DNA of 64,000 nt, from assembly GCA_965219445.1 (NCBI GenBank), contig CBDCNQ010000005.1:576001-640000 (forward strand). The letters run 5' to 3'. A program made the position numbers and the translations under genes. Below the pieces are notes generated by a model that worked only from the letters and a program-made list of their open reading frames with translations, ran no database searches and was not told where the DNA came from. The stretch comes from Longimicrobiales bacterium (lineage in GTDB: Bacteria > Gemmatimonadota > Gemmatimonadetes > Longimicrobiales > Gaopeijiaceae). Of the stretch, positions 6,045 through 47,270 are shown in pieces (within the stretch, counting starts at the first letter, position 1; every line of letters starts with the position of its first letter).

Positions 6045-7048
6045 GGGTTCACCTCCTTGGTGTGTGGGTGCTGTTCTTGCGGGGCTTCGTCGGCCCCGCT
6101 CCAGATCGGTTCGGCGATCCAGCGGCCCTTGGCCGCGTCGTAGCCGCGCACTTCGAGCGCCTCCTCGACGAAGCGCCTGCCCCGTTGCCGGGCCGTGTGC
6201 AGCACAAGTGCGATCCCGTCCACGACGCCCCGGCAGGTGACCTCCCAGGGAAGCGCGCCTTCGGCCTGCATGGCGCAGCTCGCTAGGCGCGAGAGCGCGG
6301 AGCGGGCGTTGTTCGCGTGGATGGTGGTCAGCGAGCCGCCGTGGCCGGTGTTGAGCGCCTGCAGCAGATCGGCGGCCTCGCCGCCCCTGACCTCGCCGAC
6401 GACGATGTGGTCGGGCCGGTGGCGCAGCGCGTGCCGCACCAGGTCGCGGACCCGTACGGAGGTCTCGGTGCCGACAGCCCCGGCCTCGAAGCGGAGGCAG
6501 TTGGCGCGCTCGATCCTGAGCTCGAGCGTGTCCTCGATGGCGACGATCCGCTCGTCTTCGGGCAGCAACTCGATCAGCGCGTTCAGGAGCGTCGTCTTGC
6601 CCGAGCCCGTGCCTCCGGAGACCAGGATGTTCCTGCGGGCCAAGAGGGCCGACCGGGCGGCCCCGAGGACCGTCTCCGGCAGCGAGCCCATGCGCACCAG
6701 GTCCTGAGCCGAGAACGCGCGGCCCCCGAACCGGCGTATGGTGATGGCGACCTCGGGACTCGCGGGCGGCGTGCAGATGGCGACCCTTGAGCCGTCCTCG
6801 AGACGGGCATCGAGGATGGGCCGTGTGGCGGGATCGAGGCCGAGCGGCCGGGCGATGTGGATCGCGGCGCGGTGGAGCCAGGCGGCGGTGAGTGCCGGCG
6901 CCTCGTGGGGCTCGAGTCGGCCGCCTCGCTCGATCCAGACGTTGCCGGGTCCGTTGATCATGATCTCGGAGACCTCCGGGTGCTCAAGGAGCGTCTCCAG
7001 GCCCGGAAGGAACGGCTTCAGGTGCCCGATCCCGCTTGCGCGCTTCAT
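6041..7048 (-). CDS. virB11: VirB11/TrbB/CpaF-family traffic ATPase
   Basis: SGGTGSGKTT, IEDTLEL, RPDHIVVGEVRG, TGHGGSLTTIHA; ATG at 7048. Confidence 0.9.
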   Translation of the reverse strand: MKRASGIGHLKPFLPGLETLLEHPEVSEIMINGPGNVWIERGGRLEPHEAPALTAAWLHRAAIHIARPLGLDPATRPILDARLEDGSRVAICTPPASPEVAITIRRFGGRAFSAQDLVRMGSLPETVLGAARSALLARRNILVSGGTGSGKTTLLNALIELLPEDERIVAIEDTLELRIERANCLRFEAGAVGTETSVRVRDLVRHALRHRPDHIVVGEVRGGEAADLLQALNTGHGGSLTTIHANNARSALSRLASCAMQAEGALPWEVTCRGVVDGIALVLHTARQRGRRFVEEALEVRGYDAAKGRWIAEPIWSGADEAPQEQHPHTKEVNP

Positions 7049-7581
7049 ATCCGTCCCTCCTCGCGGAGCCGCCAGTAGCCCACGTCCCTCGGCAGGTAGT
7101 GGGGTTTCAGGTAGACGCGCCGGGCAGGGAGCGACTTCGTGCCGTCGTATGGCAGGCAGATCGCCTGATAGTTGGCGAGCAGGCTGAAGTCCCGGGGCGT
7201 GAACACGGGCTCCCTCTGCTGCCGGAACGACTTGCTCGCGCCGATCGTGCCGCGGCCCCCTCCGGCTCGCCCGGACAAGAGCGAGAACTCGGGCCTGCCC
7301 GTGGTCTCGGTGAACGTGTAGGAGGGCTGCGTCTTCATGACGCTGCCGCACATCTCGGACGCGATCCGGGCCGACGACTCGTCGCTCAAGGACAGGAAGA
7401 TCCGGGTGCGGAGCGTCTGGAGGAGCGTGCGCCAGGCCTCGCCTCCGGGCAGCACGGAGCGGAGCGAGGAGATCGACTGCGTGGCGACGATCGGGACGCA
7501 GCGGCACTGCCGGGTGAGCGCGAACGCCTTCTCGTCGCCAGCGGGGTCGTCCTGGCCGACGGTCGCGAACGCCTGGTACTC
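7045..7581 (-). pseudogene. virD4: virD4-like coupling protein of ICE-A, 3' part
   Basis: EYQAFATVGQDD...EEGRI matches the C-terminus of 17155-19200; begins at the 9-bp core. Confidence 0.9.
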
Positions 7582-7736
7582 CTTCCACGCACTGTCCATC
7601 TAGGTTCTAGGAAGTCCCATAAGACAAGTGAAGTGGTTGTAGGGGATATACTTACGTTATATTGCCATCTCAGTACGGCTGCTATGTTCCAAGACTGAAA
7701 GGGTGATCCACAGGGTGATCGCAAAAGGGTGACCAC

Positions 7737-8897
7737 ATGGGCAGACACGGCAAGAAACTCACTGCCGCCTTCGTGCGGAGCGTCCAGGAACCGGGGCTGT
7801 ATTGGGACGAGCACGGCCTCGTGCTACGGGTCAAGCCGTCCGGCTACAAGCAGTGGGTCCAGCGACTGTTCATTCACGGCAAGCGCAGGGAGTTGGGGCT
7901 CGGTTCGGTCCGCCTCGTGACGCTGGCCGAGGCGCGGGACGCGGCGCTGGCCAACCGCAAGGTGGCCCGCGCGGGCGGCGATCCGAGGACGAAGCGGCAC
8001 AGTTCAGTGCCGACGTTCGAGCGGGCGGCGGCCAAGGTCTTCGCCATGCACCGTCCGACCTGGACCGACAGGCACGCGGGCCAGTGGATGGCGACGCTGC
8101 GCGCCTATGCGTTTCCCGGGATCGGGGGGAAGCGGGTGGACCGGATCGCGCCCGCCGACGTCATGGGGGTGCTGCTTCCGGTCTGGAACGGGAAGCACCA
8201 GACGGCCAAGCGGGTCCGCCAGCGGATTTCGACGGTGATGCGGTGGGCGATCGCGCAGGGCTACCGCATGGACAACCCCGCGGGCGATGCGATCGGCGCC
8301 GCGCTGCCGAGGCCTCCGCGCGTCCAGAAGCACTACAAGGCGCTACCCTACGGGGAAGTGGCCGGGGCGATTGACGCGATCCAGCGATCCGAGGCAAGGG
8401 TGACGGTGCAGCTGGGCTTCGAGTTTCTGGTGCTGACGGCCTGCCGGTCGGGCGAGGTGCGTGGGGCTCGCTGGGAGGAGGTCGACCTGGAGGGCGGAGT
8501 GTGGACGATCCCGGCGGAGCGGATGAAGAGCCGGCGGGAGCACCGGGTGCCGCTGTCGGCGCGGGCGAGGGAGATCCTGGCCGAGGCGAAGGCGCACGCG
8601 CCTCGTTCGGAGTGGGTGTTCCCGTCCGTGCGGGGGCTGGTGCTGCCGAGCTTCGAGTTCGCGGGCCTGCTCAAGGCGCTCGGGATCGCGGCCGTGCCGC
8701 ACGGCTTCCGCTCCAGCTTCCGGGACTGGACGGCGGAGCGCACCGACGCGCCGCACGCGGTCATGGAGGCGGCGCTGGCGCACGCGGTCCGCAACAGGGT
8801 GGAGGCCGCCTACGCCCGCTCGGACCTGTTCGAGCGCCGCCGCGTCCTGATGGAGCAGTGGGCGGGCTACCTGGCTGGCGAGCGTCGACACGCGTAG
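7737..8897 (+). CDS. P4-type tyrosine integrase with N-terminal arm-binding domain
   Basis: GLVLRV..W..R..GLG; TACRSGE, EHRVPL, HGFRSSFR, LAH, AAY. Confidence 0.92.
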   Translation: MGRHGKKLTAAFVRSVQEPGLYWDEHGLVLRVKPSGYKQWVQRLFIHGKRRELGLGSVRLVTLAEARDAALANRKVARAGGDPRTKRHSSVPTFERAAAKVFAMHRPTWTDRHAGQWMATLRAYAFPGIGGKRVDRIAPADVMGVLLPVWNGKHQTAKRVRQRISTVMRWAIAQGYRMDNPAGDAIGAALPRPPRVQKHYKALPYGEVAGAIDAIQRSEARVTVQLGFEFLVLTACRSGEVRGARWEEVDLEGGVWTIPAERMKSRREHRVPLSARAREILAEAKAHAPRSEWVFPSVRGLVLPSFEFAGLLKALGIAAVPHGFRSSFRDWTAERTDAPHAVMEAALAHAVRNRVEAAYARSDLFERRRVLMEQWAGYLAGERRHA

Positions 8898-8954
8898 GCC
8901 GGTGCCCAGCCGCCGAGGGGCGATCCGTTGAGGCCCGATCCGAGGCCGATCCAC

Positions 8955-9065
8955 GGCTGGCTCATGACCCCTTAAGGGTCAAGAGCCAGCATACCCCTTG
9001 GGGCCACGCTTCGCGGGTCCCCGGCAAGGGCTGGCGAGGGGCTCCGCCCCTTCGACCCCCGACAG
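8955..9065 (+). promoter_or_regulatory. oriT-like site, copy 2
   Basis: GGCTGGCTCATGACCCCTTAAGGGTCAAGAGCCAGCATACCCC...; very similar to 1307-1415. Confidence 0.5.
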
Positions 9066-9282
9066 GTCCGCGCTCCGGCGGAGCGCGCAGTCGGGGGCTC
9101 CGCCCCCCTTCCCCCGGTGCGTCCCGACCGTGGGGGCTATTGAGAACGGTATACCGCTTCACGTTCAGCCCGCCGGTCGAGACCATCCTGCACCGCGTGT
9201 CCGGGTCGTCCCACAGGTGCGCGACTCTCCCGCGCTTTCGTCGGATCAGGTAGAGCTGCGTCCCCGGGTCCCCTTCGGTCAC
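8962..9282 (-). CDS. Small hypothetical protein (3' end uncertain)
   Basis: Protein-like N-terminal half (AHLWDDPDTRCRMVSTGGL); 3' half runs through the structured site. Confidence 0.3.
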   Translation of the reverse strand: MTEGDPGTQLYLIRRKRGRVAHLWDDPDTRCRMVSTGGLNVKRYTVLNSPHGRDAPGEGGRSPRLRAPPERGPVGGRRGGAPRQPLPGTREAWPQGVCWLLTLKGS

Positions 9283-9340
9283 CGTGAGCGTCGTCTCCGC
9301 ACGCCCGCGACCCTGTTGGTTGCCGCCCGTTCACCCCCAC

Positions 9341-10183
9341 TCACGATCCGCCCGCCTTCGAGGGGCGTTCCGGCCACCACATGCAGAACATGAAGGCGAC
9401 CATAAAGAGACGTTGCAGCACCCACGTCATGAAGGCGATGAAGGCGAGCCAGAACAGGACCGACAGCGCGACTCCCGAAACGCCTCCCGCGAGCGCAGCC
9501 ACCAGATCGTCTTCCGCGAGCGTGGGCAGCCTCAGGACGAACTCGGCCAGCCCCCACGAAACGAGGGCGATGAAAGCGAGGATGAGAGCGAGCGTGAACG
9601 GCACCGCTAGAACGGCCGCGAGTGTGGGCAGCCTTAGGACGATCACGCCTCCTCCCCCGTGTCCGGAGCCGTTGCGGATTGCGCGGCCGTTCCCGTCGTC
9701 GCCGCGGTCTGCGTGGCCGTTCCCAGTGCCGCTGCGGGTCGCATCGCCGTCCCCGGAGCCGTCGTGGACCGCGTGGCCGTCCCCGGAGCCGTCGCGGATC
9801 GCGTGGCCATGGCCGGAGCCGCCGCGGAACGCGTGGCCGTGGCCGGAGCCTTCGCGGATCGCATCGCCGTCCCCGAAGCCTTCGCGGATTGCGCGGCCGT
9901 TCCCGGAGCCTTCGCGGATCGCATCGCCGTCCCCGAGGCCGTTGCGGATCGCGCGGCCGTGGCCGGAGCCGCTGCGGATTGCGTGGCCGTGTCCGGGGCC
10001 GGTCATCATCAGCGCACCATCCGCATCGCCGTACATATCGACGGTCAGGCGGTCGCCCTCGGGCACCGTCACGTGCAGGACCGTGCCGGTCGCCTCGACC
10101 GTTGCCCGCACCGTGGACGCCGGAAGCCCGAGCGTCTCTCGCAAGCTCGCCGCCGAGTGACTGACCGATCCGTCGCCGCTCAC
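9341..10183 (-). CDS. Gly-rich decapeptide-repeat membrane protein
   Basis: About 12 RxGxGxGxAI repeats followed by hydrophobic helices. Confidence 0.65.
   Translation of the reverse strand: MSGDGSVSHSAASLRETLGLPASTVRATVEATGTVLHVTVPEGDRLTVDMYGDADGALMMTGPGHGHAIRSGSGHGRAIRNGLGDGDAIREGSGNGRAIREGFGDGDAIREGSGHGHAFRGGSGHGHAIRDGSGDGHAVHDGSGDGDATRSGTGNGHADRGDDGNGRAIRNGSGHGGGGVIVLRLPTLAAVLAVPFTLALILAFIALVSWGLAEFVLRLPTLAEDDLVAALAGGVSGVALSVLFWLAFIAFMTWVLQRLFMVAFMFCMWWPERPSKAGGS
9655..10010. repeat. 30-bp coding tandem repeat (about 12 degenerate units)
   Basis: e.g. ccggagccttcgcggatcgcatcgccgtcc units. Confidence 0.9.
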
Positions 10184-22618: not shown

Positions 22619-23905
22619 ATGCCCCTGACCGACACCGCCATTCGGAAGGCCAAGCCTCGCGAGAAGCCCCGCAAGCTCTACGACAGCCGCGGCCTCTACC
22701 TCGAAATCGCCCCGCGCGGCACCAAGGCTTGGCGCTTCAAGTACCGCTTCGCCGAGAAGGAGAAGCGGATCTCCATGGGCATCTATCCCGAGGTCTCACT
22801 GAAGCTCGCCCGGCGGCGGAGGGACGAGGCCCGCAAGCTTCTGGCACGGGACATCGACCCGAGCGCCTACCGCAAGGCCCAGAAGCAGTCGAGGCGACAG
22901 TGGGCCAGGAACAGCTTCGAGGCGGTGGCCTCCGAATGGCTCGCCAAGCACTCGCCCAACTGGTCCACGGGTTGGGTTCGGCGGCTCGAGAGCGAGCTTG
23001 TGCGGGAGGTCTTCCCCTACATCGGCGCGAGTCCGGTCGCCCAACTCACGGCGCCGGACCTGCTGGCCGTGGTCCGCCGTGTCGAGGCACGCGGCCACCT
23101 GAGGAAGGCGCACACCGTCTTCCAGGTCTGCGGGAGGGTCCTGCGCTACGCGGTGGCGACGGGACGTGCAGAGCGGGACGTGTCGTCGGACCTGCGCGGG
23201 GCGCTGCCACCCGTCAAGACGAAGCACTTCGCGGCGATCACCGACCCGATGGAGGTCGGTCCGTTGCTCCGGCAGTTAGACGGCTACTCCGGGACGCTGC
23301 CCGTTCGATGCGTGCTCCGTCTCGCACCGCTGGTGTTCGTACGCCTCGGCGAGTTGGTCACGGCGGAGTGGGTCGGCATCGACCTTGAGGGGGCCGAGTG
23401 GCGCTACACGGTGACGAAGACCGGCAGGCCGCACGTAGTGCCCTTGGCGCGTCAGGCGGTCGCGATCCTGCGCGAGGTTCATCCCATGACGGGGCACCAC
23501 CGCTACGTCTTTCCGAACGCGCGTTTTCCATACCGGGAGCTGCCGATGAGCCGTGGCACGCTCTGGAGCGCGTTCCGGGCGTTGGACATCCCGCGGGACC
23601 GGATGACGATGCACGGGTTCCGGGCGATGGCGCGCACCATTCTGGACGAGGTGCTCGGCTTCCGGCCCGACTTCATCGAGCACCAGCTGGCACACGCGGT
23701 CAGGGATCCCAACGGCCGGGCCTACAACCGGACGGCGTTCCTGCCCGAGCGGCGCGTGATGATGCAGGCGTGGGCCGACTATCTGGACCAGCTTCGGGTC
23801 GGGGAGGAGATCGAGCCGGGGACTCACGGCGCCGGGGCCGCCCGCATCCCTACGGCCCTGGGAATCCGGAACGCCAACTCAGGGCTCGCCCTTCCCGGCA
23901 GCTGA
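22619..23905 (+). CDS. P4-type (IntA-like) tyrosine integrase
   Basis: MPLTDTAIRKAKP, GLYLEI, RLGEL, HGFRAMAR, QLAH, AYNR; GGGGCAT repeats upstream. Confidence 0.92.
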   Translation: MPLTDTAIRKAKPREKPRKLYDSRGLYLEIAPRGTKAWRFKYRFAEKEKRISMGIYPEVSLKLARRRRDEARKLLARDIDPSAYRKAQKQSRRQWARNSFEAVASEWLAKHSPNWSTGWVRRLESELVREVFPYIGASPVAQLTAPDLLAVVRRVEARGHLRKAHTVFQVCGRVLRYAVATGRAERDVSSDLRGALPPVKTKHFAAITDPMEVGPLLRQLDGYSGTLPVRCVLRLAPLVFVRLGELVTAEWVGIDLEGAEWRYTVTKTGRPHVVPLARQAVAILREVHPMTGHHRYVFPNARFPYRELPMSRGTLWSAFRALDIPRDRMTMHGFRAMARTILDEVLGFRPDFIEHQLAHAVRDPNGRAYNRTAFLPERRVMMQAWADYLDQLRVGEEIEPGTHGAGAARIPTALGIRNANSGLALPGS

Positions 23906-24323: not shown

Positions 24324-24700
24324 TCATGACCACCCTCCGGGGAGGCGGGTCGAGCGCCAGGTGGCGAAGCAATCGATCGTCGCTCGGGAGCGCAGCGTGC
24401 GCTGCAGCTCCTTCAGCTCGACGATCCGCTCAAGCCCCGCCTGGAGATCCCCGTACTCGTCGAGCGTGTGGTCATCCCCCTCTAGGATGGCACGCTCGAT
24501 CCGGGTGATCTCGCGCTTGGCTGCCTGAACCGAGTCGGACGAGCTGGAGGCGTCGGATGCGCGTGCACGCACCCAGTGCTCGAGGATCATCCGGCCCCGC
24601 AGCAGTGGGCCGCGCCCCACGAGTGAAGCGCCCTTTCCCTTCGCCGTCTCGTCGAGGGCGATCCATTCGGCCCGGCGTCCTGTCCAGCCGACGGCCACAC
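24324..24700 (-). pseudogene. Internally deleted copy of the ICE wHTH gene
   Basis: GWTGRRAEWIAL joined to REITRIERAI...TWRSTRL. Confidence 0.7.
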
Positions 24701-24886
24701 GGACGGGACGGGACGCGATCGCGGCACACATGGCGACGTGGCGGGCCGACGCGGCCGCACACGGGCACGCGCCTAGCCCGGACGCAGGTGCATGTCGGAA
24801 GACTGGGTGCCACCCGCCAGCGGGGCGACACGCGCTCACAGGCTCCCTCGACACCCGTGGCTGGTGCCTCTACAATAAGGCGGCAG

Positions 24887-25423
24887 ATGACCACCGCGCC
24901 CACGCACATGACGGCGAAGAGAACCCTTTATTTGGCGAACCCCTACGGCTTCTCCGCGCAACAGCGCGGCGGACCGTTACCCGAGCTTGTGGGGGCGCTG
25001 GAGTCGATGGGAGCCGACGTGTGGGAGCCGTTCGCCCGTAACAACCAGATTCACCGGGCGAGTGCGGGCTGGGCGTATCGGATCGGGCAGGCCGATCTGC
25101 GGGACGTGCGCGAGGCCGATGGACTGTTCGCCGTGGTCAACGGCTGTCCGCCGGATGAGGGCGTCATGGTGGAGCTTGGCCTAGCGATCGCGTGGGAGAA
25201 GCCGGTGTTCCTGTTCAGAGACGATTTTCGCCGATGCACCGACAGCGAGGTCTACCCGCTCAATCTGATGTTGTTCACCGGCCTGCCCGCGGTCGGCTGG
25301 GAAGCCGCGTGGTACGGCTCGATCGAGGAGATCGCTGATCCCGGCAAGGCGCTCGCACGCTGGTTGCGGCATGACTGGCCGCCCGGCTCGGCGTCGGCCG
25401 AGGCGGATCCGATAGAAGTATGA
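24887..25423 (+). CDS. Nucleoside 2-deoxyribosyltransferase-family protein
   Basis: YLANPYGF, DLRDVREADG, DEGVMVELGLA, NLML (alternative start 24908). Confidence 0.85.
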   Translation: MTTAPTHMTAKRTLYLANPYGFSAQQRGGPLPELVGALESMGADVWEPFARNNQIHRASAGWAYRIGQADLRDVREADGLFAVVNGCPPDEGVMVELGLAIAWEKPVFLFRDDFRRCTDSEVYPLNLMLFTGLPAVGWEAAWYGSIEEIADPGKALARWLRHDWPPGSASAEADPIEV

Positions 25424-25659
25424 CAGCGCTCACCGCCAGGCAGAGCGCGGCGCACACAACGAAGAGGCCTTATGGCGCTGTATTATAACTTCGCGTTCGC
25501 TGCCAAGGAGGAGCAGCCCATCTGGATGGTCAAACTCCTTGTGGAGGGCATGAAGCAGCAACTCCGATCCCTGTACCCAGGCGGAAGAGGATACCCCAGA
25601 GAACAGGCCGAGAGCAAGGCCTTCACATGTCTCTGGAACAACCTCGGTTTTCGCGCCCC

Positions 25660-25755
25660 CATCCGCGTGGTCGTCGACTTCAGCCGTCTCGATTTCATCA
25701 GCAGCGCGGGCATGCGGGTGCTCCTCATCGCCGCCAAGGCGCTGAAGGCGACAGT
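25660..25755 (+). pseudogene. STAS (anti-anti-sigma) domain fragment
   Basis: VVVDFSRLDFISSAGMRVLL. Confidence 0.7.
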
Positions 25756-25841
25756 TTGGCCGGGGAAAAGAGGACGGTGGCCAACCGCCCTTGCCGTGGT
25801 TACTTGAGAGTTGCCAAGTCCACTCAAGCCACGAGGGAAAG

Positions 25842-25920
25842 ATGACCACCGTCCAGAAGGAGAAGATGGCGCGTCGGAAGCTGAGCCTGCTACGTCTGGC
25901 TCAGGAGCTGGGGAAACGAG
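25842..25920 (+). pseudogene. IS481-family transposase N-terminal fragment
   Basis: MTTVQKEKMARRKLSLLRLAQELG. Confidence 0.6.
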
Positions 25921-26070
25921 TTGCTGCTCAAGGGAATCCAGGTGAGCTCGACGGGCGTGTGGGGAGCTGTTTCGGCAATCGAAGAACAAGGGAGAGAGTC
26001 AGGATATATCGTCAGAGTCTAGCCTTGACGGTGTGGACTCTATGTTGTCCGTTAAGAAGAGGAGCATGAC

Positions 26071-27015
26071 ATGAATCGGCTCATATCTGTTGTCTCGTGC
26101 TTTTTGGTCTCATTGATGCTTCCGTGTGTATCGGAGGCCCAACAGCTATACGTGAGTACTGAGTCGGGCCTTGGGATCGGAAATTCCTTGGGTACCCTAG
26201 GTAGCGATACTGATTTTCCAACTCTCTGCGACAGGCACCTGGATCCCGCCAACCACTTCTCGCCACCGGGAATTACTGAGCCCGGAGAATGCTCGTCCGC
26301 AGCGTCCACTTGGATCAACAGCTTCGGTAGTTCAACCGGAATAATCTCCGGCGTCGCTCTGGGTTTTAAGACCGACATCGGGGCAAGAATTGAAGTGGAA
26401 TATTTTCGGTCTGGCATGCAGTACAATGCGACCTCAGTGCTCGGTGGAGGAGGAGCGGACGTTCAGGACAAATCGGACCAGGAACTCGTCCGCGGGGAGG
26501 AACGCATAGGAAGTGTCAACATAAACAGTTTGGTCGGTAACATCTACTATGACCTGCCGGTTTCCGGACAACTCCGTCCATATGTCGGAGGCGGCGTGGG
26601 TCTCGGCATGGCCGGCCTAGACTATGCCGGATTCTTTTCGCGAAACCTAGACCCTGACGCCATCAAGACGGCGGACGAAGCTACCTACAACGGCAGAGGC
26701 AACGAAGCGGTCGACCGCCAGGCTCTGCATGAGAGAATCGCTGGTACGACCACAACGGCCAGTCACACGCTTCACGATACAATATTGGGCTACCAAGCAA
26801 TGGTGGGAGTGGACTATATGCTGACCGACGACGCTTCTATCGGAGTCAAGGGACGCTGGATCAAGCACGCCAAGTTTAGTGACAGTAACGAATGGGATCA
26901 GTTGCGCAGTCATAGCTCTGACAATGGCTCGGGAACTAACGCCGTCGTCTATACCATTGAGACCGAGGACTTGAGCTCGATTGGTGTCACTCTGGTTATG
27001 AAATACGCGTTCTGA
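26071..27015 (+). CDS. Outer-membrane beta-barrel protein (opacity/surface-antigen-like)
   Basis: Signal peptide, RIEVEY, NIYYD, PYVGGGVG, YQAMVGVDY, terminal F; GAGGAG RBS. Confidence 0.85.
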   Translation: MNRLISVVSCFLVSLMLPCVSEAQQLYVSTESGLGIGNSLGTLGSDTDFPTLCDRHLDPANHFSPPGITEPGECSSAASTWINSFGSSTGIISGVALGFKTDIGARIEVEYFRSGMQYNATSVLGGGGADVQDKSDQELVRGEERIGSVNINSLVGNIYYDLPVSGQLRPYVGGGVGLGMAGLDYAGFFSRNLDPDAIKTADEATYNGRGNEAVDRQALHERIAGTTTTASHTLHDTILGYQAMVGVDYMLTDDASIGVKGRWIKHAKFSDSNEWDQLRSHSSDNGSGTNAVVYTIETEDLSSIGVTLVMKYAF

Positions 27016-27388
27016 TTTTCGGGGCAGGTCAATACGCGACATCGCACGACCCATAGATCCCGAGGATCCCACGAGGGTGCTTTTTCGGCTTGGCCAAGCT
27101 TAGACGCGAGCGGCATAGACAGGATCGTGTCCACCGCGCTGGGGGTAGCCGCCGATGCTCGCCAGCAGGACCTGCGGTGGTAGGGGCATGGGCGAGCGGC
27201 TAGGCGCATCTCGATCCGGTGGGAGTTACCCCACGTGCAGGACCCACTCTTTTCCGGCAGCGCAAGGCCGTCGCACAGCACATGGACGTTATAGTATGGG
27301 GGAGTCAGGCGAGGTCGGTCAGCCTGCCTGGCTGGGACGTTGGGGCGGGAGCGGATCGCCGACATGTCGGAGATTGCGCAACCCGCCG

Positions 27389-29071
27389 ATGAATCTCACG
27401 ATCGCGGATATGATGTCATCCTCCACATTCCTTCGAATGCCGACACCCTATCAAAATGTTGTTGACCAGCTCGATCTAGCCGCCGCATTGACTAATGGAT
27501 CGGAAAGAAACGATCTGCTGCTGCCGCGAGCTGAGGACAAGGTAGGCGGGGAGGTTGGCAACAGGTTTCTTCAGGCTCTGATACGCGACCTCGAACGCGG
27601 GAGATATGATCCGGCTCCTGCATATACCGTCAGGGTGCCGAAATCCACATCTGCGACGCGTCCCGCGGCCCTACTGACGCTCAACGACCGAGTCGTCTAT
27701 GCAGCCTTGGTGGCTACGCTACGTTCGCGGATCGACAGTTACCTTCTCGGCGAAGAAATCGTCTTCTGGCCCCGAGGTCTACAGCGTAACAAGAGCTGGC
27801 TCAAGTTCGAGCACTCGCCGCTCACCGATTCATGCAAGTATGTGGTCCTCGCTGACGTCTCGGGCTTCTACGAATCGGTGGACCATAGGCGCTTGGCCGA
27901 GCGATTGATCCGAGCCACTGGCAAGCGAGCTGAAGTCGAGGCGCTATCCCATTTCCTGACGAGAGTGATGGGCGGCTCCCGTGGCCTACCTCAGGGGCTC
28001 GATGCTTCAGACCCGCTCGCCACAGCTTATCTAGCAGAGCTGGATTTGGCGATGATACGTAATGGATTCGCTTACACGCGACATGGGGACGACTTCCGCG
28101 TCGCGATGAAAGGCTATGACGATGCTCGCGGTGCCTTATACACCCTTGAAGCATGCGTGCGGAGCGCGGGCCTGCTCCTAAGTGGACACAAGACGAGAGT
28201 GCTGAAGGCATCAACCTATAAGGATGCCGTCCAGTCAATTGAGAAGTCGATTGCCGATGTGCGAAGCAAGGTCCTCAGCAAGAAACTCGCAACGCTAGAG
28301 GATGATCCGGATGCGCTAGACACGGCCATCGATCTTGCTGACATGGAACAGCTCGGGTGGGATTTCTTCTATCATGGGAACGTGTCATTGCAGGAAGTTA
28401 TTGACCAGTTGCGGCCGTCACTCGAGCCGAATGCGGTCGAGATTGCCGAGGACCTTTTCGCAGAAACGTGGGAGCGGAGACCCGGTAAACCCAACGCTCT
28501 TGCTAGCGATGCCTTTCATCAGAGGATTGTCGCTTCATTGGTCAGGTTGGCAGCGGGGCGCTCTCCCAAAGCGCTGGGGGCAGCAGGCGATATCCTCATT
28601 TCATATCCCGAGAAATCGGAGGTTGTATGCTCGTATCTCCTCGCGCTGGCGGGAACAGAACCCAAGAAGGTCGCCGCGCAGGCGAGCAAGACCTTGAAAG
28701 CCGGGCGGTTCCGCACGGAGTGGGAGGTGGCGTGGGCTGCCCGGGTCTTAACCTCCGTTGCGGATCAGTTGCCGGAGTGGGTCGTCTCGCAACTGGAGGC
28801 GCTGACCACGTCACCTTTCGATTCGTGGCTCGCAGCAACCGAGGTAGCCAAGCTTCTGAGTGCCCAAGGGGAGCTGAGTCGTGAGGCGTTTATGCTCCTC
28901 TGGAATGCCTGCCCCGTTGTCTTTCGGGCGGACCTCGTCGTAGCGGCGAACAGTCTCTCCACGAATGCAGAATGGGCGAGGGTCTTCCTGTCTGCGGTCA
29001 AGGATGATCGTATTCATCAGGTGATACTAGGTCAGTTGCAGCAACAGGGTACCCAGCCTGCGACCTCCTAG
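27389..29071 (+). CDS. Reverse transcriptase (UG/Abi/DRT-like) with helical C-terminal domain
   Basis: VPK..TRP, ADVSGFYESVDH, GLPQG, RHGDDF, HKT; start uncertain (27389 or 27437). Confidence 0.85.
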   Translation: MNLTIADMMSSSTFLRMPTPYQNVVDQLDLAAALTNGSERNDLLLPRAEDKVGGEVGNRFLQALIRDLERGRYDPAPAYTVRVPKSTSATRPAALLTLNDRVVYAALVATLRSRIDSYLLGEEIVFWPRGLQRNKSWLKFEHSPLTDSCKYVVLADVSGFYESVDHRRLAERLIRATGKRAEVEALSHFLTRVMGGSRGLPQGLDASDPLATAYLAELDLAMIRNGFAYTRHGDDFRVAMKGYDDARGALYTLEACVRSAGLLLSGHKTRVLKASTYKDAVQSIEKSIADVRSKVLSKKLATLEDDPDALDTAIDLADMEQLGWDFFYHGNVSLQEVIDQLRPSLEPNAVEIAEDLFAETWERRPGKPNALASDAFHQRIVASLVRLAAGRSPKALGAAGDILISYPEKSEVVCSYLLALAGTEPKKVAAQASKTLKAGRFRTEWEVAWAARVLTSVADQLPEWVVSQLEALTTSPFDSWLAATEVAKLLSAQGELSREAFMLLWNACPVVFRADLVVAANSLSTNAEWARVFLSAVKDDRIHQVILGQLQQQGTQPATS

Positions 29072-29840
29072 GAAAGCAGCCTAGTTATCCGAAACCCCTC
29101 GCTCCACCACGGTAGGAGTCCATATTTTTGGTACATGAATCCCAACTAGAGTCCGAGCATGGATCGAGCTGAGGCTCTTGCCGTCGTTGACCGGGCCCTG
29201 AGCAAGTTCCCGGAATTGCGCCGTGTGCGGTGTGGGTCTCCTGTCCATGTGTCGTGGGTGCAGACTACAACCATGGATCTTAGCTGGCGAGCTCGGCGGC
29301 CCGGGGATCGTCAATGCGCACGTTCGTCGAACCTGAGCCGACGATGGCGATTAAGACAGCAGTGCCGACACTCGACGCTCGGCTCGGCTGGCAGCCGAGT
29401 TAAACCGTCCACGAAACTGGATCAAGCCCAGAAGGTGCTGCGCGCCTCCGCCGATTGCGCCACGGCCCTCTTAGACTTGCCACTTGCGCCAGCTCCAATC
29501 GACTATCAGTCTCCGATGGACTTCAAGCGAAGCCGTGACGAGGCAGAATGAGGCCGCCTTCTACTCCACCGCTTCACGGCGGAAGCTTTGGCTCCCCGTT
29601 GCTACGCGAGGAGCCAAGACCAGCTCGGCCTTGCCAGCGCAGCCGCCGTGGTGGGGATGAGCCATGTGCTCGTCGCCATGAATCTGCCACGCGGAGGCGG
29701 GCCATTTCCTGGGCTACCCCCCGCGTGGGGCGATTGGAATCTTCCGTTACCGGCTCGATAGTGTGGGATCCGTTGATCGGGGTCCTTGGGAGGCGGTATC
29801 CTCAAATGAAGGCCATCGGACTCAACTGGAGGTGACTCAA

Positions 29841-30698
29841 ATGCCTTTGTCCTGGCAGTTACATGCCTTCGGAGCCACGCTTGCGATCTGCACCCTGCTC
29901 GGCGGAGCGGAACAAGGTGCGGGTCAACAGCCGGGGTCTTACGGGTGGTACGTGAGCGCGAGCGGCGGGACGAACTGGAATCCCGTCATGAAGCAGGCGG
30001 GCCATAACCGGGACAATATCTGTTACCCGAATGACCTTTGCAGCGGCACGCCCGATGGCTACCGCTGGTTTTACGACCTTCCCTCGGATCTCGGTACTGC
30101 TTTTGAAGTCGCCGTCGGTCGAAATTTCGGCGACGTGCGCGTGGAGGTGTCGGTCTCCCAGCGATCGAACAACGTCGAGCAAGAGTTCACCGACATTACC
30201 TTTCTGGATGGATCTCCGATCCTGCCTAACGAAGACAGCAACTATACGTCGGCCAACACAACCAGGGTCGATGCTCTGGGTGCGCGCACGCTGTCCCTGA
30301 ACGCCTATCACGACTTCGCGTTCGCAGAAAGCCGGGTCATGCTTTACCTGGGCGCCGGACTGGGCCTGTCCTTCATCGAATTGTCCGGGCTGTATTTCAG
30401 CAGCGAATATTCCTGCATCAATCCGCCGTGCGACGGTCGTCCCGCGGCGGAGTACAACAGTCTGCAGGACGTTGATCTGTCCGACAGCGGGCTTGCGAAG
30501 CAGCTCTTTGCCGGTGCCGACTATCGTTTGGGCGACAAGCTCCTGCTCGGCCTGAAGGCGTCCTACAGCTGGGTCCACGACCTTGTGGACACGAGTCCTT
30601 ACGAGGTGCATCCGTTTCCTATAATGAACGACACTGAAATCAGTGGCATCAATCCCTGGTCGATGATGCTCGGCTTCAAGTACCTGCTCGGCGAGTGA
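29841..30698 (+). CDS. Outer-membrane beta-barrel protein
   Basis: GGAGG RBS, signal peptide, NAYHDF, YLGAGLG, GADY, GFKYL. Confidence 0.8.
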   Translation: MPLSWQLHAFGATLAICTLLGGAEQGAGQQPGSYGWYVSASGGTNWNPVMKQAGHNRDNICYPNDLCSGTPDGYRWFYDLPSDLGTAFEVAVGRNFGDVRVEVSVSQRSNNVEQEFTDITFLDGSPILPNEDSNYTSANTTRVDALGARTLSLNAYHDFAFAESRVMLYLGAGLGLSFIELSGLYFSSEYSCINPPCDGRPAAEYNSLQDVDLSDSGLAKQLFAGADYRLGDKLLLGLKASYSWVHDLVDTSPYEVHPFPIMNDTEISGINPWSMMLGFKYLLGE

Positions 30699-31029
30699 GG
30701 GGTCGTCCCGACGGATATTGACATGCCACGCGTCGGTGCGGTCCGACCACTACGCGGCCAGCGCTTTGGGATCAACATTGCCTAGTTTTCCACGGTGAGC
30801 CTGCAGGGCTGTTCGGAGCGCAGACTTTGCTCGTGTGTCCTCGGCGAGTTCCCCATTGATTTGGCCGACGAGACCTCTAGTGGCCTCTCCTAGTCCGCGT
30901 CCCCTCAACCGACCCCAGCAGCTGCCTGCCGCCATATGTCCTTCGTGTGGCGCGCGACTCAGGACGCACCGGCAAGAGGGACGGGGGGCGAGCCAGCCGC
31001 CCGTGACCTCCGCCGGAGCGCGGGCGTCC

Positions 31030-31141
31030 AGGGGATCGAAGGGGGGCGGAGCCACCCCTCGCCAGCCCCTGCCGGGGACCCGCGAAGCGTGGCCCCAAAG
31101 GGTAGGCTGGCTCTTGCACCGTAAGGTGCTCCGAGCCAGCC
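31030..31141 (-). promoter_or_regulatory. oriT-like site (inverted)
   Basis: Close to the reverse complement of 1307-1415. Confidence 0.5.
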
Positions 31142-31486
31142 CGGCGGACGCCGCCGAAGCAGCGGGGGAGGGCTTCGGCTGTGACCCGTCCAGATAGGCC
31201 CGCCCAAGCTATCTGCCGCAGTAACGCGGCTGCGGACTGCCGCAGACCCGGAACACGGCACTCCGGTTCGAATATTCCCAGCATCGTTCGTGCGCAGGCC
31301 GACGTCCGGTCGAGATCCGCACCCATTGACGGAGCCTTCGGCGAAGGCCGACGGGGCGTTTGGCAAGCCGCTGGCGGCGGTGTCCAACAGCCCCTGTACC
31401 GTACTGAACGTCTCTGAACGCCACAGGCATTTAGGAGGTTTTCTACGGGTTGACTTCCTTGCAAACGGCTCCTCACCGTTAGGGGC

Positions 31487-32199: not shown

Positions 32200-33384
32200 A
32201 TGCGTAAACGACCGCTTACGGCTGTCTTCGTGGCACGGGTGACGACGCCGGGACGCTACGGCGACGGGGGGCGCGGCGGACTCGGGCTGTACCTCCGCGT
32301 CCACCGAATGAAGTCGGGGCGCGTCTCCAAGTCCTGGGGCCAGCGCGTTCGAGCGGGAGGGAAGCCCACCAATCTCGGACTGGGCTCGTATCCGGTCGTG
32401 ACGCTCAAGGAAGCGAGGGAGGAGGCGCTGGAGAACAGGCGCGCGCTCCATTGGGGCCACGATCCGAGAGCCGCCGGGGTTCCCACCTTCGAGGCGGCCG
32501 TCGAGAAGGTGATCGTGATCCACTCGCCGACCTGGAAGAGCCCTTCCCGCATCGCCGGACAGTGGCGGCAGACGCTGAGGGACTACGCCCATCCGCGCAT
32601 CGGCCGAAAGCGCGTGAGCGAGGTCGCGACGGCCGACGTGCTCGCGATCCTACAGCCCATCTGGTCAAGCAAGCCCGCAGCGGCGAGGGTCGTGCGTCAG
32701 CGGATCGGCGCGGTGATGAAGTGGGCCGTCGCGAAGGGCTACCGGTCGGACAACCCGGCGGGTGACGCCATCGCCGCCGCGCTGCCGCGGAACGGCAACG
32801 CCACCCGGCATCACCAGGCGCTCCCGCATGGCGAGGTGTCGGCGGCGCTGGTCAAGGTCCGCAACTCGGGGTCCCATGCCGGTGTCCGGCTGGCGCTCGA
32901 GTTCATGGTCCTGACCGCGACTCGCTCGAACGAGGTCCGGGGCGCGACGTGGGACGAGTTCGATCACGATGTCTGGACCATTCCCGCCAGCCGCATGAAG
33001 GCGAAGCGCGAGCACCGGGTTCCCCTGTCGAGGCGGGCCTTGGAGATCCTTGAGGAAGCCCGGAAGCGCCACGACGACGGCGAGATCGTCTTCCGGGGCG
33101 CGAAGGGAGGAGGCATCAACGCCTCGCTGTTCAGCGGCTTGCTCCGGGGTCTCGGCATCGAGGGAACGCCTCACGGGATGAGGTCCTCGTTCCGCGACTG
33201 GTGTTCGGAGACGGGCGTGGCGCGCGAGGTGGCCGAAGCGGCGCTGGCCCATGTCGTGAAGAACAAGGTCGAGGCCGCCTACGCCCGTTCCGACCTGCTG
33301 GACCGGAGGCGCGAGGTCATGGAGGCCTGGGCTGCGTACCTGGTCGGCGAGCGCCGGTCCGCTGAGGCCGATCCGGTCTGCTGA
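32200..33384 (+). CDS. P4-type tyrosine integrase
   Basis: TATRSNE, EHRVPL, HGMRSSFR, LAH, AAY. Confidence 0.92.
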   Translation: MRKRPLTAVFVARVTTPGRYGDGGRGGLGLYLRVHRMKSGRVSKSWGQRVRAGGKPTNLGLGSYPVVTLKEAREEALENRRALHWGHDPRAAGVPTFEAAVEKVIVIHSPTWKSPSRIAGQWRQTLRDYAHPRIGRKRVSEVATADVLAILQPIWSSKPAAARVVRQRIGAVMKWAVAKGYRSDNPAGDAIAAALPRNGNATRHHQALPHGEVSAALVKVRNSGSHAGVRLALEFMVLTATRSNEVRGATWDEFDHDVWTIPASRMKAKREHRVPLSRRALEILEEARKRHDDGEIVFRGAKGGGINASLFSGLLRGLGIEGTPHGMRSSFRDWCSETGVAREVAEAALAHVVKNKVEAAYARSDLLDRRREVMEAWAAYLVGERRSAEADPVC

Positions 33385-40908: not shown

Positions 40909-43644
40909 TGGTTGGAGGAATAGGGTCACGGAGCGACCACCACGTCTGAATGACCAGCGGCGAGCGCGTTCATCCATGCGAGGGCCAGATCGCGGGACCG
41001 GTAGGTCCCATATGCGGCTGTCTCTTCGCGTTCGACGATGGGAAAGGTCGAGTAGATGTAGCGTATATCCTCCCGGTCCGTCACCCCGTACAGGTGGAAA
41101 TAGAGCGCATCCAGCTTGGCGCGGAGGTGGAGGCGCCTGCCGTCGTCCCAACGGAAGGGCGGCAGTACCTCACCCGCCTCGTCCACGTGGCCCAACTCGT
41201 GGGCAAACGGAGCCATGTCGTGTGCCGTATAGGAGAGTTCCAGCACGGCCTCGCGGACGATCTCCTGCGCCGTCTTGGGTCCGAAGCTCACGGCCCCGTA
41301 CCGCTCCGGTGGTACGACGGGAAGTTGCTCGACGATGAACCAGTTCAGATGCTGGCCCTGGATCTTCTGACGCGCCACGTAGTCGAATAGCACGGCGTTG
41401 AAGTTCGCCAAGAGGCACGTTACGTCGGCCCCGCCGTACCAGTCTGCCGAAACGATGGGGAGCGTGTTCCCTACTCCGGAGCCCGGTATCAGAGCGGCGA
41501 TCATCGAGCGAACGTTCGTTGGCGCGGTGACGTCCTTGAATCCCAGCAGGTATGAGGCTGTCGGGAACGACGTCTTGCCACGGAGCACCCAGTATTGCGG
41601 GTCGGGCAGCCAGTTCGGGTCCCGATGCTGCTCCGGGGTGGCCGGTTTCGGCTGGGCGGGGCGGTGAAGGTTCTTCGGGTTGATGACGATGCTGGCGGCC
41701 CGGTGGTCGAACGCCTGCACCATCTTGCCCTCGTAGAGCGGCACCCATTCGCCGGACCGGCTCTGGTATCGGTTGCCGCCGACCGGCCACGCGCCTTCCT
41801 TATCCTCCAGTTCCGACCGGGTGCGGAACTGGTCGGAGTCGTTGGTCATGTGGAACATCGTCGAGTACTTCACCGGCCACGCCTTCACGGCCTCGCCCGA
41901 CGAGCGGTCCACCAGCACCGGCAAGCGGTCGTAGATCGCCGTCGTGAGTTCCGCGTCGCGGCGCGAGCGGAAGATGGGAGCCGTGCCCGTGTTCGGATTG
42001 ACCCGGGCGAAGTCGGCGGCCGAGAGGGGGAAGCACCGCTCCGGGTCTCCGGTCTCCGAAACGTCTTGCAGAAAGAACGCACAGCGGGCCGGTTCATTCC
42101 CCGGTGCCGGGCTGGCGACGAAGGCGCAGAACTTGAACCGGCTGTCCACGTCTGGGAAGAAAGGCGGCACGTCGTAGCGCGTCCGCCGGTTCTCGAAATC
42201 GTAGAGGGCCTTGAGTCTGCCCTCGGTGGCCACGCTCTTGAAGAACGGGGCCGCCATCTTGTCCGACGCGATGCCGGACGGCACGAGCAGCCCGACCATG
42301 CCGTCGGGCTTGACGAGCGTCATGGCCCGTTCGACGAACAGCGAGTAAAGGTTCAGGTCGCCGCGTGCCAACAGCGGATAGCTGCCCGAGCCGCGGGCCA
42401 CCCGCGCGCCCGCGGCGGCTTGTTCGCTCGCAAGCTGGAAGTCCCCGGCCAACGGGTCTTTCGCCTTCTGGAGTTCGGCGATCATGCGTTTCCGGTCGGC
42501 AGCGCGGGGCGCCATGGCGATCTCGCGCCGGCGGGACGCGAACCATTCGACCTGCTGGAGCTTCATCCGGTCCCATGGCGGGTTGCCGATCACCGCGTCG
42601 AAGCCGCCGGTCAACTCCGCGGCTTCCCAGTCCGACCACACGCCGGGGAACGCCACCTGCCAGTTCAGGAAACGCTCACTGGCTACCAGTCCCAAGGCAT
42701 CCATCAGAAAGGGAAGGTCGGCATCCGACGAATCAGTTTGCTCCCCCTGGGCGACGCCCATCTGATCGCCGAACACACCATCCAACCATTTGAGAAACGC
42801 GGCCTTGACCTCACGCTTTCGGAGGCCCAGCCAGTCGAAGGCGTGAAGAAGCGACATGAAGGCGTGCAGGGGAGCGGTCATCTCCGAGACTTCGGCGAAG
42901 ATGTCGGCCGAACGGTGCGCCTCGGCGATCTCGGCGTCCGTCAACCCCTCTATGATCTGCATCGGCGCAGCCGCGCGCGTGGCCCGCACGAGCGTTCCCC
43001 TCAGGAACAGGCTGCTCTTCTCGTCCGTCCTGCGCACGGCGGGCTCCACCCACGCGCCGAACAGGCTGTCGCCGCAGCGGAGGTGATGATCCAGAAAGCT
43101 CAGCGGGGCGCCGACGGTGAACGTATGGAGCCACAGCGAGACCTTGGTCAGTTCCACCGCCATCGGATTCTTGTCCACTCCGTAGACGCAGCGCTTCAGC
43201 ACCATGCGGCGGACGATGTGCCGGTCGTCGAGTTGGGCCGGATCGAATGTCCAGCCCCTGTCCTCCGCGTTGTCCATGATCGTGTTGCGGATCCCGTCGA
43301 TCCGCTCCAGCAACGGCGAGAGGTATCCGTCCACGAGAGCTTCGGCCTCGGCCATCGCCTCGATAACGCGATCGGCAAGGTAGTCCACGAGGTTGACGAG
43401 GAAGTGTCCAGAGCCCATCGCCGGATCGCAGACCTTCAGCTCCAGCAGCTTCTCTGCCGGGTCTAGCCGCTTCAGGCGACCGATACGGTGGTCCTCCGGC
43501 ATCTTGTTTGACGCGATCTCCTCCACCTTGGCGGCGAAATGCTTCATGCGCGCGTCCGCCAGCGGCCCGACCGTCTCCCGCACGATCAGGTCAACCAGAT
43601 CGTCGGGCGTGTAGTAGCTGCCCGAGTCCTTGCGCGCGAACACG

Positions 43645-44821
<1,177 letters not shown>

Positions 44822-46539
44822 GACGGACGACGATGTTCCCGCCGTCGCGGACGACCTCCCGTTCGAGCAGCCGCTCGTAGATCGAGCCGAGTTGCTGAAC
44901 CCCGAGATCCCGGTAGTTGATGTACCGGCGCGTCGGGCCATTGCGCTCGAAAGACAGCGCGTCGATCACATCGGCCATCACCGCGTCACCCAGCCGAACG
45001 CGCGAAAGCAGGGGCGTGCGCTCCCGGTCGAACAGTCCACCGTTGTAGGGCGGCAAGCCGATGGAGGCGTCACCCGCATCAATGGCGCGGCACAGGTCGT
45101 CGAACGCCGACCAGTAGCGGGCCGCCGTGACCGAGAACACGTCGCCCTGGTCCTTCCGGCGGCCAATGCTACCGCGTACCTGCTCGCGGAGCGCGTAGTC
45201 GTCGTAGCGGCTGTCGCGGACGGGCAGGAGATCCCGGTCTTCGGCGTAGAGGACGAAGAGGAGCCTGTAGAGCAGGACCAGCGCCGTGTCCCGCACCTCG
45301 GGCAACGGGACCTCGGTGTCCGCCTCGGCGAGTGCCCGGACGAGGTCCGGGAACACGTTCTCGAAGACCAGCGCCGACAGACTGCCGGCGACCCGTTCCT
45401 GATGGAAGCGGCCTTCCTCGATCGCCCGTTCGTGAAACGTTCGCTCGTCGGCCGCGCCGGGAAGAAAGGCATCCCGCCGGAACACCAGCCAGAACACCTT
45501 CAGCCAGTGCGCCCTTTCATCCGTCCCGAGCACCTCCTGCCCGTCGTCCGGATACCCGAGGACCGCCGCCAGATCAAGCTCGAAGAACTGTTCGGCGACC
45601 GAGCGCGCGCCGGCGTAGTAGAGACGCCAGCGAGCGCCGTTCGTCAGGATGCCCCAACGGATCTTCCCAATGGTCAGGTCGTCGATGCGGCGGAGGTAGC
45701 GCAGCATCTGCGTCGAGGGCGCGGACTCCTCACCCCGCCGCCCGGAGCGACGGTCCAGCGGTCGAAGCCACCGTTTCGACTCGACGACCGCCAAGCCGTA
45801 CTCGTAGCGCTTCCATTCCTCGGCGAAGCGGTTCGCCCGGTCCTTCGAGGAGCCGTCGGCGAACAACAAGCCATCCGGCACGTCTTGGCGTCCGTGCGCC
45901 GAGAGGTTCTGCTGCCTGAGGCTGGCAGTCCAGCCGAGCCGCGCCAGCACCGGCCAGATCAGGTCATCCTCGGTCTGGCTCTCGTTGGGCGACAGATCCG
46001 TCGGGAACCGATTGAAGAGGCCACGCAACGCGGCTTCAAGGTCTGCGAGCCCCGCGTCGGCTACGTCCCGCCAGTCCGGAAGCTCGGCGATCGCTTCTCG
46101 AAGGAAGTCCTCGGCGAACAGGCTCCCCTCGAAGGGCCGGACCATCGTCATCCGTAACCTCCCAAGCCCAATAGCCCCGAGTCAGCTTGGCCCAGCAGTG
46201 CAGTCCTTAGTATTGTCGAATCCTCGTCTGACAGTGATCCGGCCGTGCATTCAAACTAGCTCCCGCCGCGCTCAAGCGCGCCTCCTCGAAGGCCCACCCG
46301 AGTCCGCGAGCGAAGCTCTGGCCCTACGCTCGTCGGGAGGTGATGGAGGTGCCGCTGGCGGAGGCCGAGTCGGCACCGGGACGGCGCTGGAACGCTTGGG
46401 AAGTGGCCCCGATTCACGGTGTTGACACAGCCGGAATCGGGCTTCTCCGTGTAGGGTGTGGAGACTCTTGTCCGGCGACAAACGGGGCCGGAAGAGCGGT
46501 ACGTGAGACCGGCGGTGTTGGCAGGTTCGACGCGAGCCG

Positions 46540-47034: not shown

Positions 47035-47270
47035 TGCCGGGGAGCCAGCATACCCCCTGGGGCCACGCTTCGCGGGTCCCCGAGCGGGGCTGGCGGGGGG
47101 CTGTGCCCCCCTCTGACCCCCCCACCGGCAACGGCGCATCGTGAGCGCTGGACGCGCGAGCGAGGCGGAGCGTGCCGAGTGGCCCGCCAGGGCGCGCTCC
47201 CGCAAGCGGGCCGTCGAGGTCGTCGCCCACTTGATTGCCATCGAGCTGGCGCTCCGGGCGCTGCCCACCA
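47035..47270 (+). pseudogene. mobC: oriT-like site plus internally deleted mobC
   Basis: GAGCCAGCATACCCC..GGGGCTGGC, then RASEAERAEW...AVEVVAHLIAIE. Confidence 0.5.

Follow-up and report, generated by a model that had tools for sequence, protein, structure and literature searches.

Introduction

Class 1 of the UG/Abi reverse transcriptases (RTs) is defined by a C-terminal HEAT-like helical-repeat domain termed alphaRep, and UG22 is one of the groups named within this class (Mestre et al. 2022, PMC9226505). Here we examined a UG22 reverse transcriptase gene located in a 64,000-nucleotide (nt) stretch of a Longimicrobiales genome, referred to below as the window, whose product carries an HGDD box where motif C usually reads YxDD. 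The Class 1 enzymes studied to date make untemplated DNA, and in some cases they are protein-primed (PMC13174585). DRT4 is the best-studied solo system of the class; it makes protein-primed random single-stranded DNA (PMC12783706), and both RNA cleavage and responses to single-stranded DNA-binding (SSB)-like proteins and deoxynucleoside triphosphate (dNTP) levels have been shown for it (preprint 10.64898/2026.10.27.754916). AbiK, Abi-P2 and AbiA carry out tyrosine-primed, template-independent DNA synthesis (PMC9508834). DRT3b synthesizes poly(dCdA) without a nucleic-acid template, relying on E22 and R241 next to its active site, and its priming residue is Tyr666 (PMC13174585). The position of the priming tyrosine varies among these enzymes, from Y44 in AbiK, Y61 in Abi-P2 and Y125 in DRT4 to Y298/Y303 in AbiA and Y666 in DRT3b (PMC12783706, PMC13174585). 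For UG22, Mestre et al. predicted a HEPN-like neighbour (cluster 79) (PMC9226505). Relatives such as DRT3b, DRT4, DRT7 and DRT1 keep yielding unexpected modes of making DNA, and the window copy offers a clean test object, being a single intact gene, recently transferred and, as far as its context shows, in need of no partner.

Assignment to UG22 and overall architecture

We found that the window RT belongs, over its full length, to UG22, a group already named within the Class 1 UG/Abi enzymes. The PADLOC profile RT_UG22 (PDLC03760) matched amino acids (aa) 23-547 on profile positions 4-473 of 476 (E 5.8e-97, 323.7 bits), with RT_UG21 as the runner-up (1.7e-50, 170 bits), followed by other Class 1 groups. 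Scores against the characterised types were far lower, with 114 bits for Drt8 and 36 bits for Drt4, and Drt6 was not among the best 25 PADLOC families listed for the protein (in this nomenclature DRT4 is UG15, DRT6 is UG12 and DRT11 is UG5). The NCBIfam Drt models likewise stayed below their cut-offs (Drt3a 41.7 of 200 bits, Drt5 28.9 of 550, Drt4 28.2 of 450, Drt2 22.4 of 390), so the protein is not a close member of a characterised DRT type. We collected 120 homologues with 37-99% identity, and other metagenome members scored 350-419 bits on the RT_UG22 profile. In a tree that contained no labelled UG references, the window RT fell into a 56-row clade together with the top scorers on that profile, L017 (419 bits) and L037 (397 bits). 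The first-pass annotation, made from the letters of the window, had placed the protein in a divergent clade; that proposal gave way to the full-length UG22 match, and no unrecognised clade is needed. With the published group the window RT shares the length class of about 540 aa, the RT plus alphaRep build and the xGDD box. It differs from the group as published in lacking the predicted HEPN-like neighbour (PMC9226505), as do most loci of its subclade; this neighbour is predicted for only some of UG22 and does not define the RT as such.

The remaining parts of the first-pass description, which had read the gene as a stand-alone UG/Abi enzyme of the DRT kind with intact RT motifs, an HGDD active site, about 290 aa of helical sequence and no hallmarks of introns, retrons or diversity-generating retroelements (DGRs), held up in our analysis. 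The RVT_1 domain scored 49.6 bits against a cut-off of 29.6. HGDD was placed at nt 28082-28093 by the protein text '...FAYTRHGDDFRVAM...' (YTRHGDDFRV), exactly where it had been reported, and it was the sole xxDD box of such type in the protein. Across 121 sequences, the query included, we observed D156, the motif B residues P201-Q202-G203 (PQG), S207, D234-D235 and K268 as invariant, and the catalytic aspartate set (D156, D234, D235) is intact. The alignment of homologues began at about residue 17, so translation may in fact start not at 27389 but at the ATG at 27437; a longer open reading frame (ORF) from 27155 was rejected, as the homologues gave it no support. Residues 275-560, 286 aa in total, contained 16 predicted helices.

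A scan of the protein for NAxxH, VTG and Rx4-6H motifs found none. We tried and rejected two assignments to other RT classes. The group II intron model TIGR04416 (NCBIfam) reached 82 bits against a cut-off of 300, and Rfam found no intron RNA in the window; the NCBIfam retron model reached 23.2 bits against a cut-off of 235, with neither NAxxH nor VTG in the protein and no Rfam match in the window. Group II intron RTs are nearest to the RT core by sequence profile (GsI-IIC, 8.2e-23), with a core Z of 21, but they differ from the window RT, which has no maturase/thumb domain and no intron RNA.

An AlphaFold2 model was built on 53 homologues and compared with known structures by Foldseek and VIA-align. 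The model was confident, with a predicted local distance difference test score (pLDDT) of 93.7 and a predicted template-modelling score (pTM) of 0.89. Its best full-length match was DRT6 (9wy8_A), with a VIA Z of 21.9 and a root-mean-square deviation of 3.8 over 436 residues (model 31-546). AbiK (7r06_A; Z 20.1, 445 residues), UG15/DRT4 (9l9s_A; Z 20.1, 436 residues), AbiA (Z 17.2) and Abi-P2 (Z 15.3) also matched the model over its full length. RTs of group II introns, DGRs, retrons, DRT2 and DRT9 matched the fingers-palm core only, and G2L4 RT (Z 19.4) aligned over aa 22-277 only. Since the full-length superposition is on Class 1 enzymes, the predicted protein has the Class 1 architecture, that is, a fingers-palm core joined to a HEAT-like alphaRep domain, which in the model stands in for the thumb. 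When the C-terminal 286 residues were folded alone (pLDDT 91.5), they resembled only alphaRep, HEAT or armadillo repeats, and did so weakly (Foldseek E >= 0.1; VIA Z <= 11.8, a range that helical repeats reach through arrangement alone). The fold search with this isolated tail returned no nuclease or other enzyme fold.

Among the enzymes with the same full-length fold, DRT6 (solved as a hexamer, 9wy8) is likewise a single-gene Class 1 enzyme but belongs to a different UG group and has 13% identity to the window RT. DRT4 is also a single-gene RT with an alphaRep domain, at 11% identity; it has YIDD in motif C and primes from the palm Tyr125 (PMC12783706), whereas the UG22 RT has HGDD and candidate priming tyrosines only. 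AbiK, Abi-P2 and AbiA have 10-16% identity to the window RT, and AbiK retains Tyr245 of motif C where the UG22 RT has His232.

Histidine in motif C of UG22 enzymes

The histidine could have been a private mutation of this copy, as the first-pass annotation had noted, and we found that it was not. In the query and its 120 homologues motif C read RHGDD in 117 of 121 sequences, RNGDD in three and RYGDD in one. Searching 1.84 billion cluster representatives with a profile returned 815 proteins at E <= 1e-30. Sixty-two representatives at 50% identity belonged to the branch of about 540 aa and covered motif C, and these carried HGDD (46), NGDD (7), YGDD (5), RGDD (3) or KGDD (1), with Gly-Asp-Asp constant in all of them. 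In a FastTree phylogeny of 124 rows, for which support values are local with no bootstrap, the proteins of about 540 aa formed the 56-row clade (support 96), and the N, R, K and Y forms were nested among the His forms. Longer proteins of 650-730 aa, L043 among them, made up a 13-row clade (support 98) that was HGDD throughout. A 40-row clade (support 100) had Y/F-x-DD, a further small clade had C, S or R at the first position, and the more distant RTs of the metagenome scan had RYVDD or RFNDD. Judged from these alignments, HGDD is a clade-wide trait and a long-standing, characteristic feature of UG22 taken broadly. The histidine is characteristic yet not indispensable, as other members of the clade have N, Y, R or K at the site. 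Six residues, D50, Y73, W137, G233, R237 and R258, were common to both HGDD clades and not to the Y/F-x-DD clade.

The AbiK-DNA adduct gives a frame for the role of this position. Its active site consists of D163, D247 and D248, and Tyr245 of its YxDD is one of three aromatic residues that stack on nascent-strand bases -2 to -4 (PMC9508834). By analogy His232 would occupy the spot of AbiK Tyr245 and is therefore likely to touch the product instead of taking part in catalysis. Since His, Asn, Arg and Lys could form hydrogen bonds with the product besides stacking on it, a biased product is conceivable. A stronger version, in which the HGDD branch makes non-random DNA because His232 together with D50, W137, G233, R237 and R258 reads or selects bases in a manner similar to DRT3b, seems to us rather unlikely. 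If it were true, the N, R and K variants would give other product compositions, and the position would act as a natural dial for product sequence. The unusual product chemistry that the first-pass annotation attached to HGDD stays at the level of speculation. Should His or its variants tune the product, a new rule for template-free synthesis would follow; if they do not, this is one more solo defence RT.

Proposed function

By analogy with AbiK, Abi-P2, AbiA, DRT4 and DRT3b, we consider it fairly probable, though well short of certain, that the stand-alone UG22 RT is a phage-defence enzyme which makes single-stranded DNA from a protein primer and without a template. Its family and full-length fold, the conserved catalytic residues, the lack of a recurring partner gene, the patchy and mobile distribution and the defence genes elsewhere in the window (Upx, the type IIG/DrmMI-like gene, SoFic, the MmeI-type enzyme and Cas4-Cas1/Cas5b) speak for it. 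The RT would likely oligomerise, and the first nucleotide would be attached to one of the enzyme's own tyrosines. From there the DNA strand would grow, untemplated, in the channel that separates the palm from the alphaRep domain. A cue from the phage, for example an SSB-like protein or raised dNTP levels, would then turn synthesis into growth arrest or abortive infection. Conservation points to Y277 (121 of 121 sequences), Y328 within GWDxFYH (121 of 121) and Y416 (120 of 121) as candidate priming residues, each outside the usual RT motifs. As the known priming sites lie far apart, position alone cannot choose among the three. The long N-terminal loop of UG22 (aa 38-56) had no conserved tyrosine of the AbiK Y44 kind.

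Several observations weigh against this proposal. The motif C tyrosine is present in the characterised Class 1 enzymes checked (DRT4 YIDD, AbiK Y245), and an enzyme with His may therefore behave differently. UG22 was among the groups for which Mestre et al. called the link to defence inconclusive (PMC9226505); our literature search found no later paper on UG22, none on defence or polymerase tests of it, and none on RTs with an HGDD motif. UG22 was observed in 0 of 50,697 phage records at E <= 1e-20, and ten pattern matches in IMG/VR viral contigs gave 0 confirmed loci. The 7 of 17 other UG22 loci in which PADLOC matches (E <= 1e-8) were observed among the ORFs up to about 3.5 kb from the RT speak for a defence setting, yet this count has no background control and includes a marginal match at L021 (32.6 bits), and helicase or methylase matches near UG22 need not mean defence. 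One of the two close copies of the gene, in the Longimicrobiales genome L010, has 1-nt and 7-nt insertions (about 6390-6500, equivalent to window 27777 and 27882) that divide it into ORFs of 211 and 412 aa. Finally, the RNA contigs over the window RT are shallow and could be DNA carry-over.

Alternative explanations

We weighed the proposed defence function against four other readings of the locus, two of which concern what the RT works with. An RNA-templated enzyme similar to the Class 2 systems DRT2, DRT9 and DRT10, served by an adjacent noncoding RNA (ncRNA) in the 769-nt spacer or in the 284 nt upstream, appears improbable to us. The spacer holds no credible gene and was retained in a shared 4 kb segment, metatranscriptome contigs reach 29033-29223 and 29521-30093, and the fingers-palm core aligns well to group II intron RTs. 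Rfam, however, gave 0 matches in the whole window at the gathering threshold and 0 at E <= 1 over 26900-31300, there was no fold signal (z-scores of 0.53 for the upstream flank and -1.33 for the spacer), and copies of the spacer were observed only at 98% identity. Other UG22 loci leave little room for an ncRNA, since the gaps in 20 loci had medians of 163 nt (upstream) and 82.5 nt (downstream), with less than 70 nt on one side in several loci, and the RT has the alphaRep build of Class 1, whose members studied so far work untemplated (PMC13174585). We hold it to be similarly improbable that the RT is half of a two-gene system, with a HEPN-type RNase or another gene, such as the outer-membrane protein (OMP)-like gene, as the other half and the window copy either incomplete or served in trans. 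The HEPN-like neighbour published for UG22 speaks for a partner, and it agrees with L043 in the longer HGDD clade, where a HEPN_Swt1 protein is encoded just downstream of the RT, the only such locus we observed. Some loci of the solo clade also have a same-strand gene at most 70 nt downstream. These include an HNH gene 36 nt after the RT at L021, where a NERD gene precedes it; a bSEFIR/TIR gene (PADLOC 1.1e-73) 28 nt after the YGDD-type RT at L031 (5947-8661); DUF5677 at L092; and a 231-aa protein with no assignment at L015. The OMP-like gene accompanies the RT in three genomes. Yet neither Pfam nor PADLOC found HEPN in the ORFs of 22-35 kb, a scan that did not include two minus-strand ORFs (24324-24854 and 25483-25989) more than 1.4 kb upstream of the RT, and the RT itself has no Rx4-6H. 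The gene downstream varies between loci and in many is convergent or missing; bSEFIR is a system of its own in PADLOC, and the genes at L031 and L021 may be optional add-on effectors or mere neighbours. The OMP-like gene adjoins the RT only in near-identical copies, 769 nt away. For the subclade of about 540 aa, the pattern of neighbours makes a single-gene, RNA-free system the simplest reading.

The other two readings question defence or catalysis. A polymerase outside defence, acting in DNA repair as reported for G2L4 and a PrimPol-RT protein, or in upkeep of the island, is in our view unlikely. The inconclusive rating in the sole survey of UG22 (PMC9226505) leans this way, as do the 10 of 17 loci with no PADLOC match nearby, the transposases and phage GPA replication gene among UG22 neighbours, and the presence of G2L4 RT among the core structural matches. 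A patchy, horizontally transferred distribution (2 of 401 genomes) does not fit a housekeeping role, though, and the full-length fold is that of defence enzymes, G2L4 aligning over the core alone; defence genes are also frequent in the window and near other UG22 copies. We give hardly any credence to the last possibility, that His disabled or strongly altered polymerisation and left a protein acting mainly as a sensor or scaffold. The YxDD aromatic is replaced, and the site accepts H, N, R, K and Y as though the usual constraint were lost. Against this, neither the metal-binding aspartates nor the residues of motifs B and D vary in the 121 sequences, the family is large, and Gly-Asp-Asp is constant, a pattern that fits a working active site.

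Neighbouring genes and the spacer

The features of the window are collected in Table 1. The defence RT proposed above is flanked by two OMP-like genes, for which we considered a recent duplication and rejected it (20% identity, E 0.057). The downstream one clustered solely with its copies in L009 and L010 when neighbours of 42 loci were compared, and it occurs beside no other UG22 genes, which suggests a hitch-hiker. The 769-nt spacer between it and the RT is most likely noncoding. Its ORF at 29159-29551 (130 aa) had a GC content at second codon positions of 0.56, compared to 0.44-0.46 in real genes, was broken by indels in L009, and had no Pfam or PADLOC match. A scan for promoters and terminators found 0 of each.

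For a wider view of UG22 neighbourhoods we fetched 80 metagenome loci and took 39 of them to be UG22-like. When 813 ORFs flanking 42 loci were clustered by blastp, neighbour families recurred only among near-identical loci. Pfam searches of 30 RT-adjacent ORFs identified transposases, NERD, HNH, TIR/SEFIR, an ApeA N-terminal domain, HerA-like proteins, phage GPA replication proteins and housekeeping proteins.

Table 1. Features of the window discussed in the text, with positions counted from its first nucleotide.
Feature	Position	Strand	Basis or remark
Tyrosine integrase left of the RT cargo stretch	22619-23905	+	Pfam Arm-DNA-bind_3, Phage_int_M, Phage_integrase
Outer-membrane beta-barrel-like gene	26071-27015		Pfam
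Shared segment of about 4 kb (RT, spacer, OMP-like gene)	27105-31163		blastn
UG22 reverse transcriptase gene	27389-29071	+	Open frame, 560 aa; start possibly ATG at 27437
RT fingers-palm core, aa 83-272	27635-28204	+	Pfam RVT_1, E 5.4e-13
Motif A aspartate D156	27854-27856	+	Invariant in homologues
Motif C H232-G-D-D235 replacing YxDD	28082-28093	+	Read from translation
C-terminal HEAT-like helical-repeat (alphaRep) domain, aa 275-555	28211-29053	+	Predicted structure, full-length alignments
769-nt spacer 3' of the RT gene	29072-29840		Most likely noncoding
Outer-membrane beta-barrel-like gene on the shared segment	29841-30698	+	Pfam OMP_b-brl, Surface_Ag_2
Dispersed repeat at right edge of the segment	31040-31145	+	36 matches in own genome
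Tyrosine integrase right of the RT cargo stretch	32200-33384	+	Pfam Arm-DNA-bind_3, Phage_int_M, Phage_integrase
PADLOC 'Upx' protein, 1,238 aa	36849-40565	-	End-to-end match, 1.6e-134
Type IIG restriction-methylase/DrmMI-like gene	40926-46151	-	Pieces 44736-46151 and 40926-43643
SoFic	50169-51380		Window defence gene
MmeI-type IIG enzyme	56275-59127		Window defence gene
Cas4-Cas1/Cas5b	62-64 kb		Window defence genes

Mobility and distribution

The RT is carried on recently transferred DNA inside a mosaic of integrase, conjugation and defence genes. Window positions 27105-31068 and 27105-31163 matched the Longimicrobiales genomes L009 and L010 at 97.9% nucleotide identity, and the L010 flanks, which include an IS21 pair, were unrelated to the window. 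L009 and L010 were alike over their positions 5065-9622 and shared 652 nt more on the left. The L009 copy has a 1-nt insertion in the OMP-like gene, and either cargo decay or long-read assembly errors would account for this and for the frame breaks in L010. We sought terminal inverted or direct repeats at the segment ends and found none that were convincing. Over 26-31 kb the GC content drops from about 0.70 to 0.54-0.60.

Of 401 sampled genomes of the phylum, 2 had UG22 at E <= 1e-40, the window's own included, and a genome of the same genus did not have it. The copy in the other carrier is distant, with about 65% identity at the nucleotide level across 290 nt, and lies beside DUF5677, DUF4238 and an HmaA-type helicase. 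Among plasmids, 2 of 72,556 matched, both with the RT core only and at 41-46% coverage.

Seven tyrosine integrase genes were observed in the 64 kb (at 1974, 7737, 12132, 22619, 32200, 51677 and 54503). Type IV secretion genes and ArdC were found at 4.8-22.7 kb, and the window has two sets of type IV secretion ATPases. Positions 1974-55774 look like a tandem accretion of integrative elements at one spot. The type IIG/DrmMI-like gene is seemingly split by an IS110-family transposase gene (43645-44628), and no Pfam domain reached E <= 1e-4 in the Upx protein.

Expression

The 4 kb segment was present in runs of 11 studies, and contigs of four metatranscriptome runs (two studies) matched pieces of the RT gene with 0-1 mismatches. 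These contigs covered 27382-27600, 27469-27657, 27767-28006, 27827-27980, 28838-29047 and 28854-29020, at a depth of 2.5-5 compared to 14-20 for the two OMP-like genes. The part of the gene at 28024-28759 had no RNA contig in any of the four runs, which carries no weight. Expression of the RT is a weak hint only, because DNA can be present in such libraries.

Other observations

The dispersed repeat that borders the shared segment on the right is about 60-105 nt long and had no Rfam match. Further copies in the window were observed at 1335-1405, 8980-9041, 47042-47100 and 56137-56165, three of them just downstream of integrase genes. A piece of the repeat (31055-31114) reached a depth of 148-340 in two metatranscriptome runs, with many different flanks. 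It may be an attachment-site (att)-like element, a repetitive extragenic palindromic (REP)-like element or a small RNA.

In the same integrase-bounded stretch as the RT, a plus-strand ORF at 24557-25423 contained a nucleoside 2-deoxyribosyltransferase-like domain (Pfam 2.1e-25, aa 124-238), and its first 120 aa look over-extended. Elsewhere in the genome we observed thirteen near-identical copies of another RT (508-aa frame), which are group II introns, for example L002 (G000:C4:1221660-1225310) and L005 (G000:C2:106648-110295), with Rfam matches to group-II-D1D4-3 (115 bits) and D1D4-1. The L005 copy lies about 120 nt downstream of a transfer-messenger RNA (tmRNA) gene.

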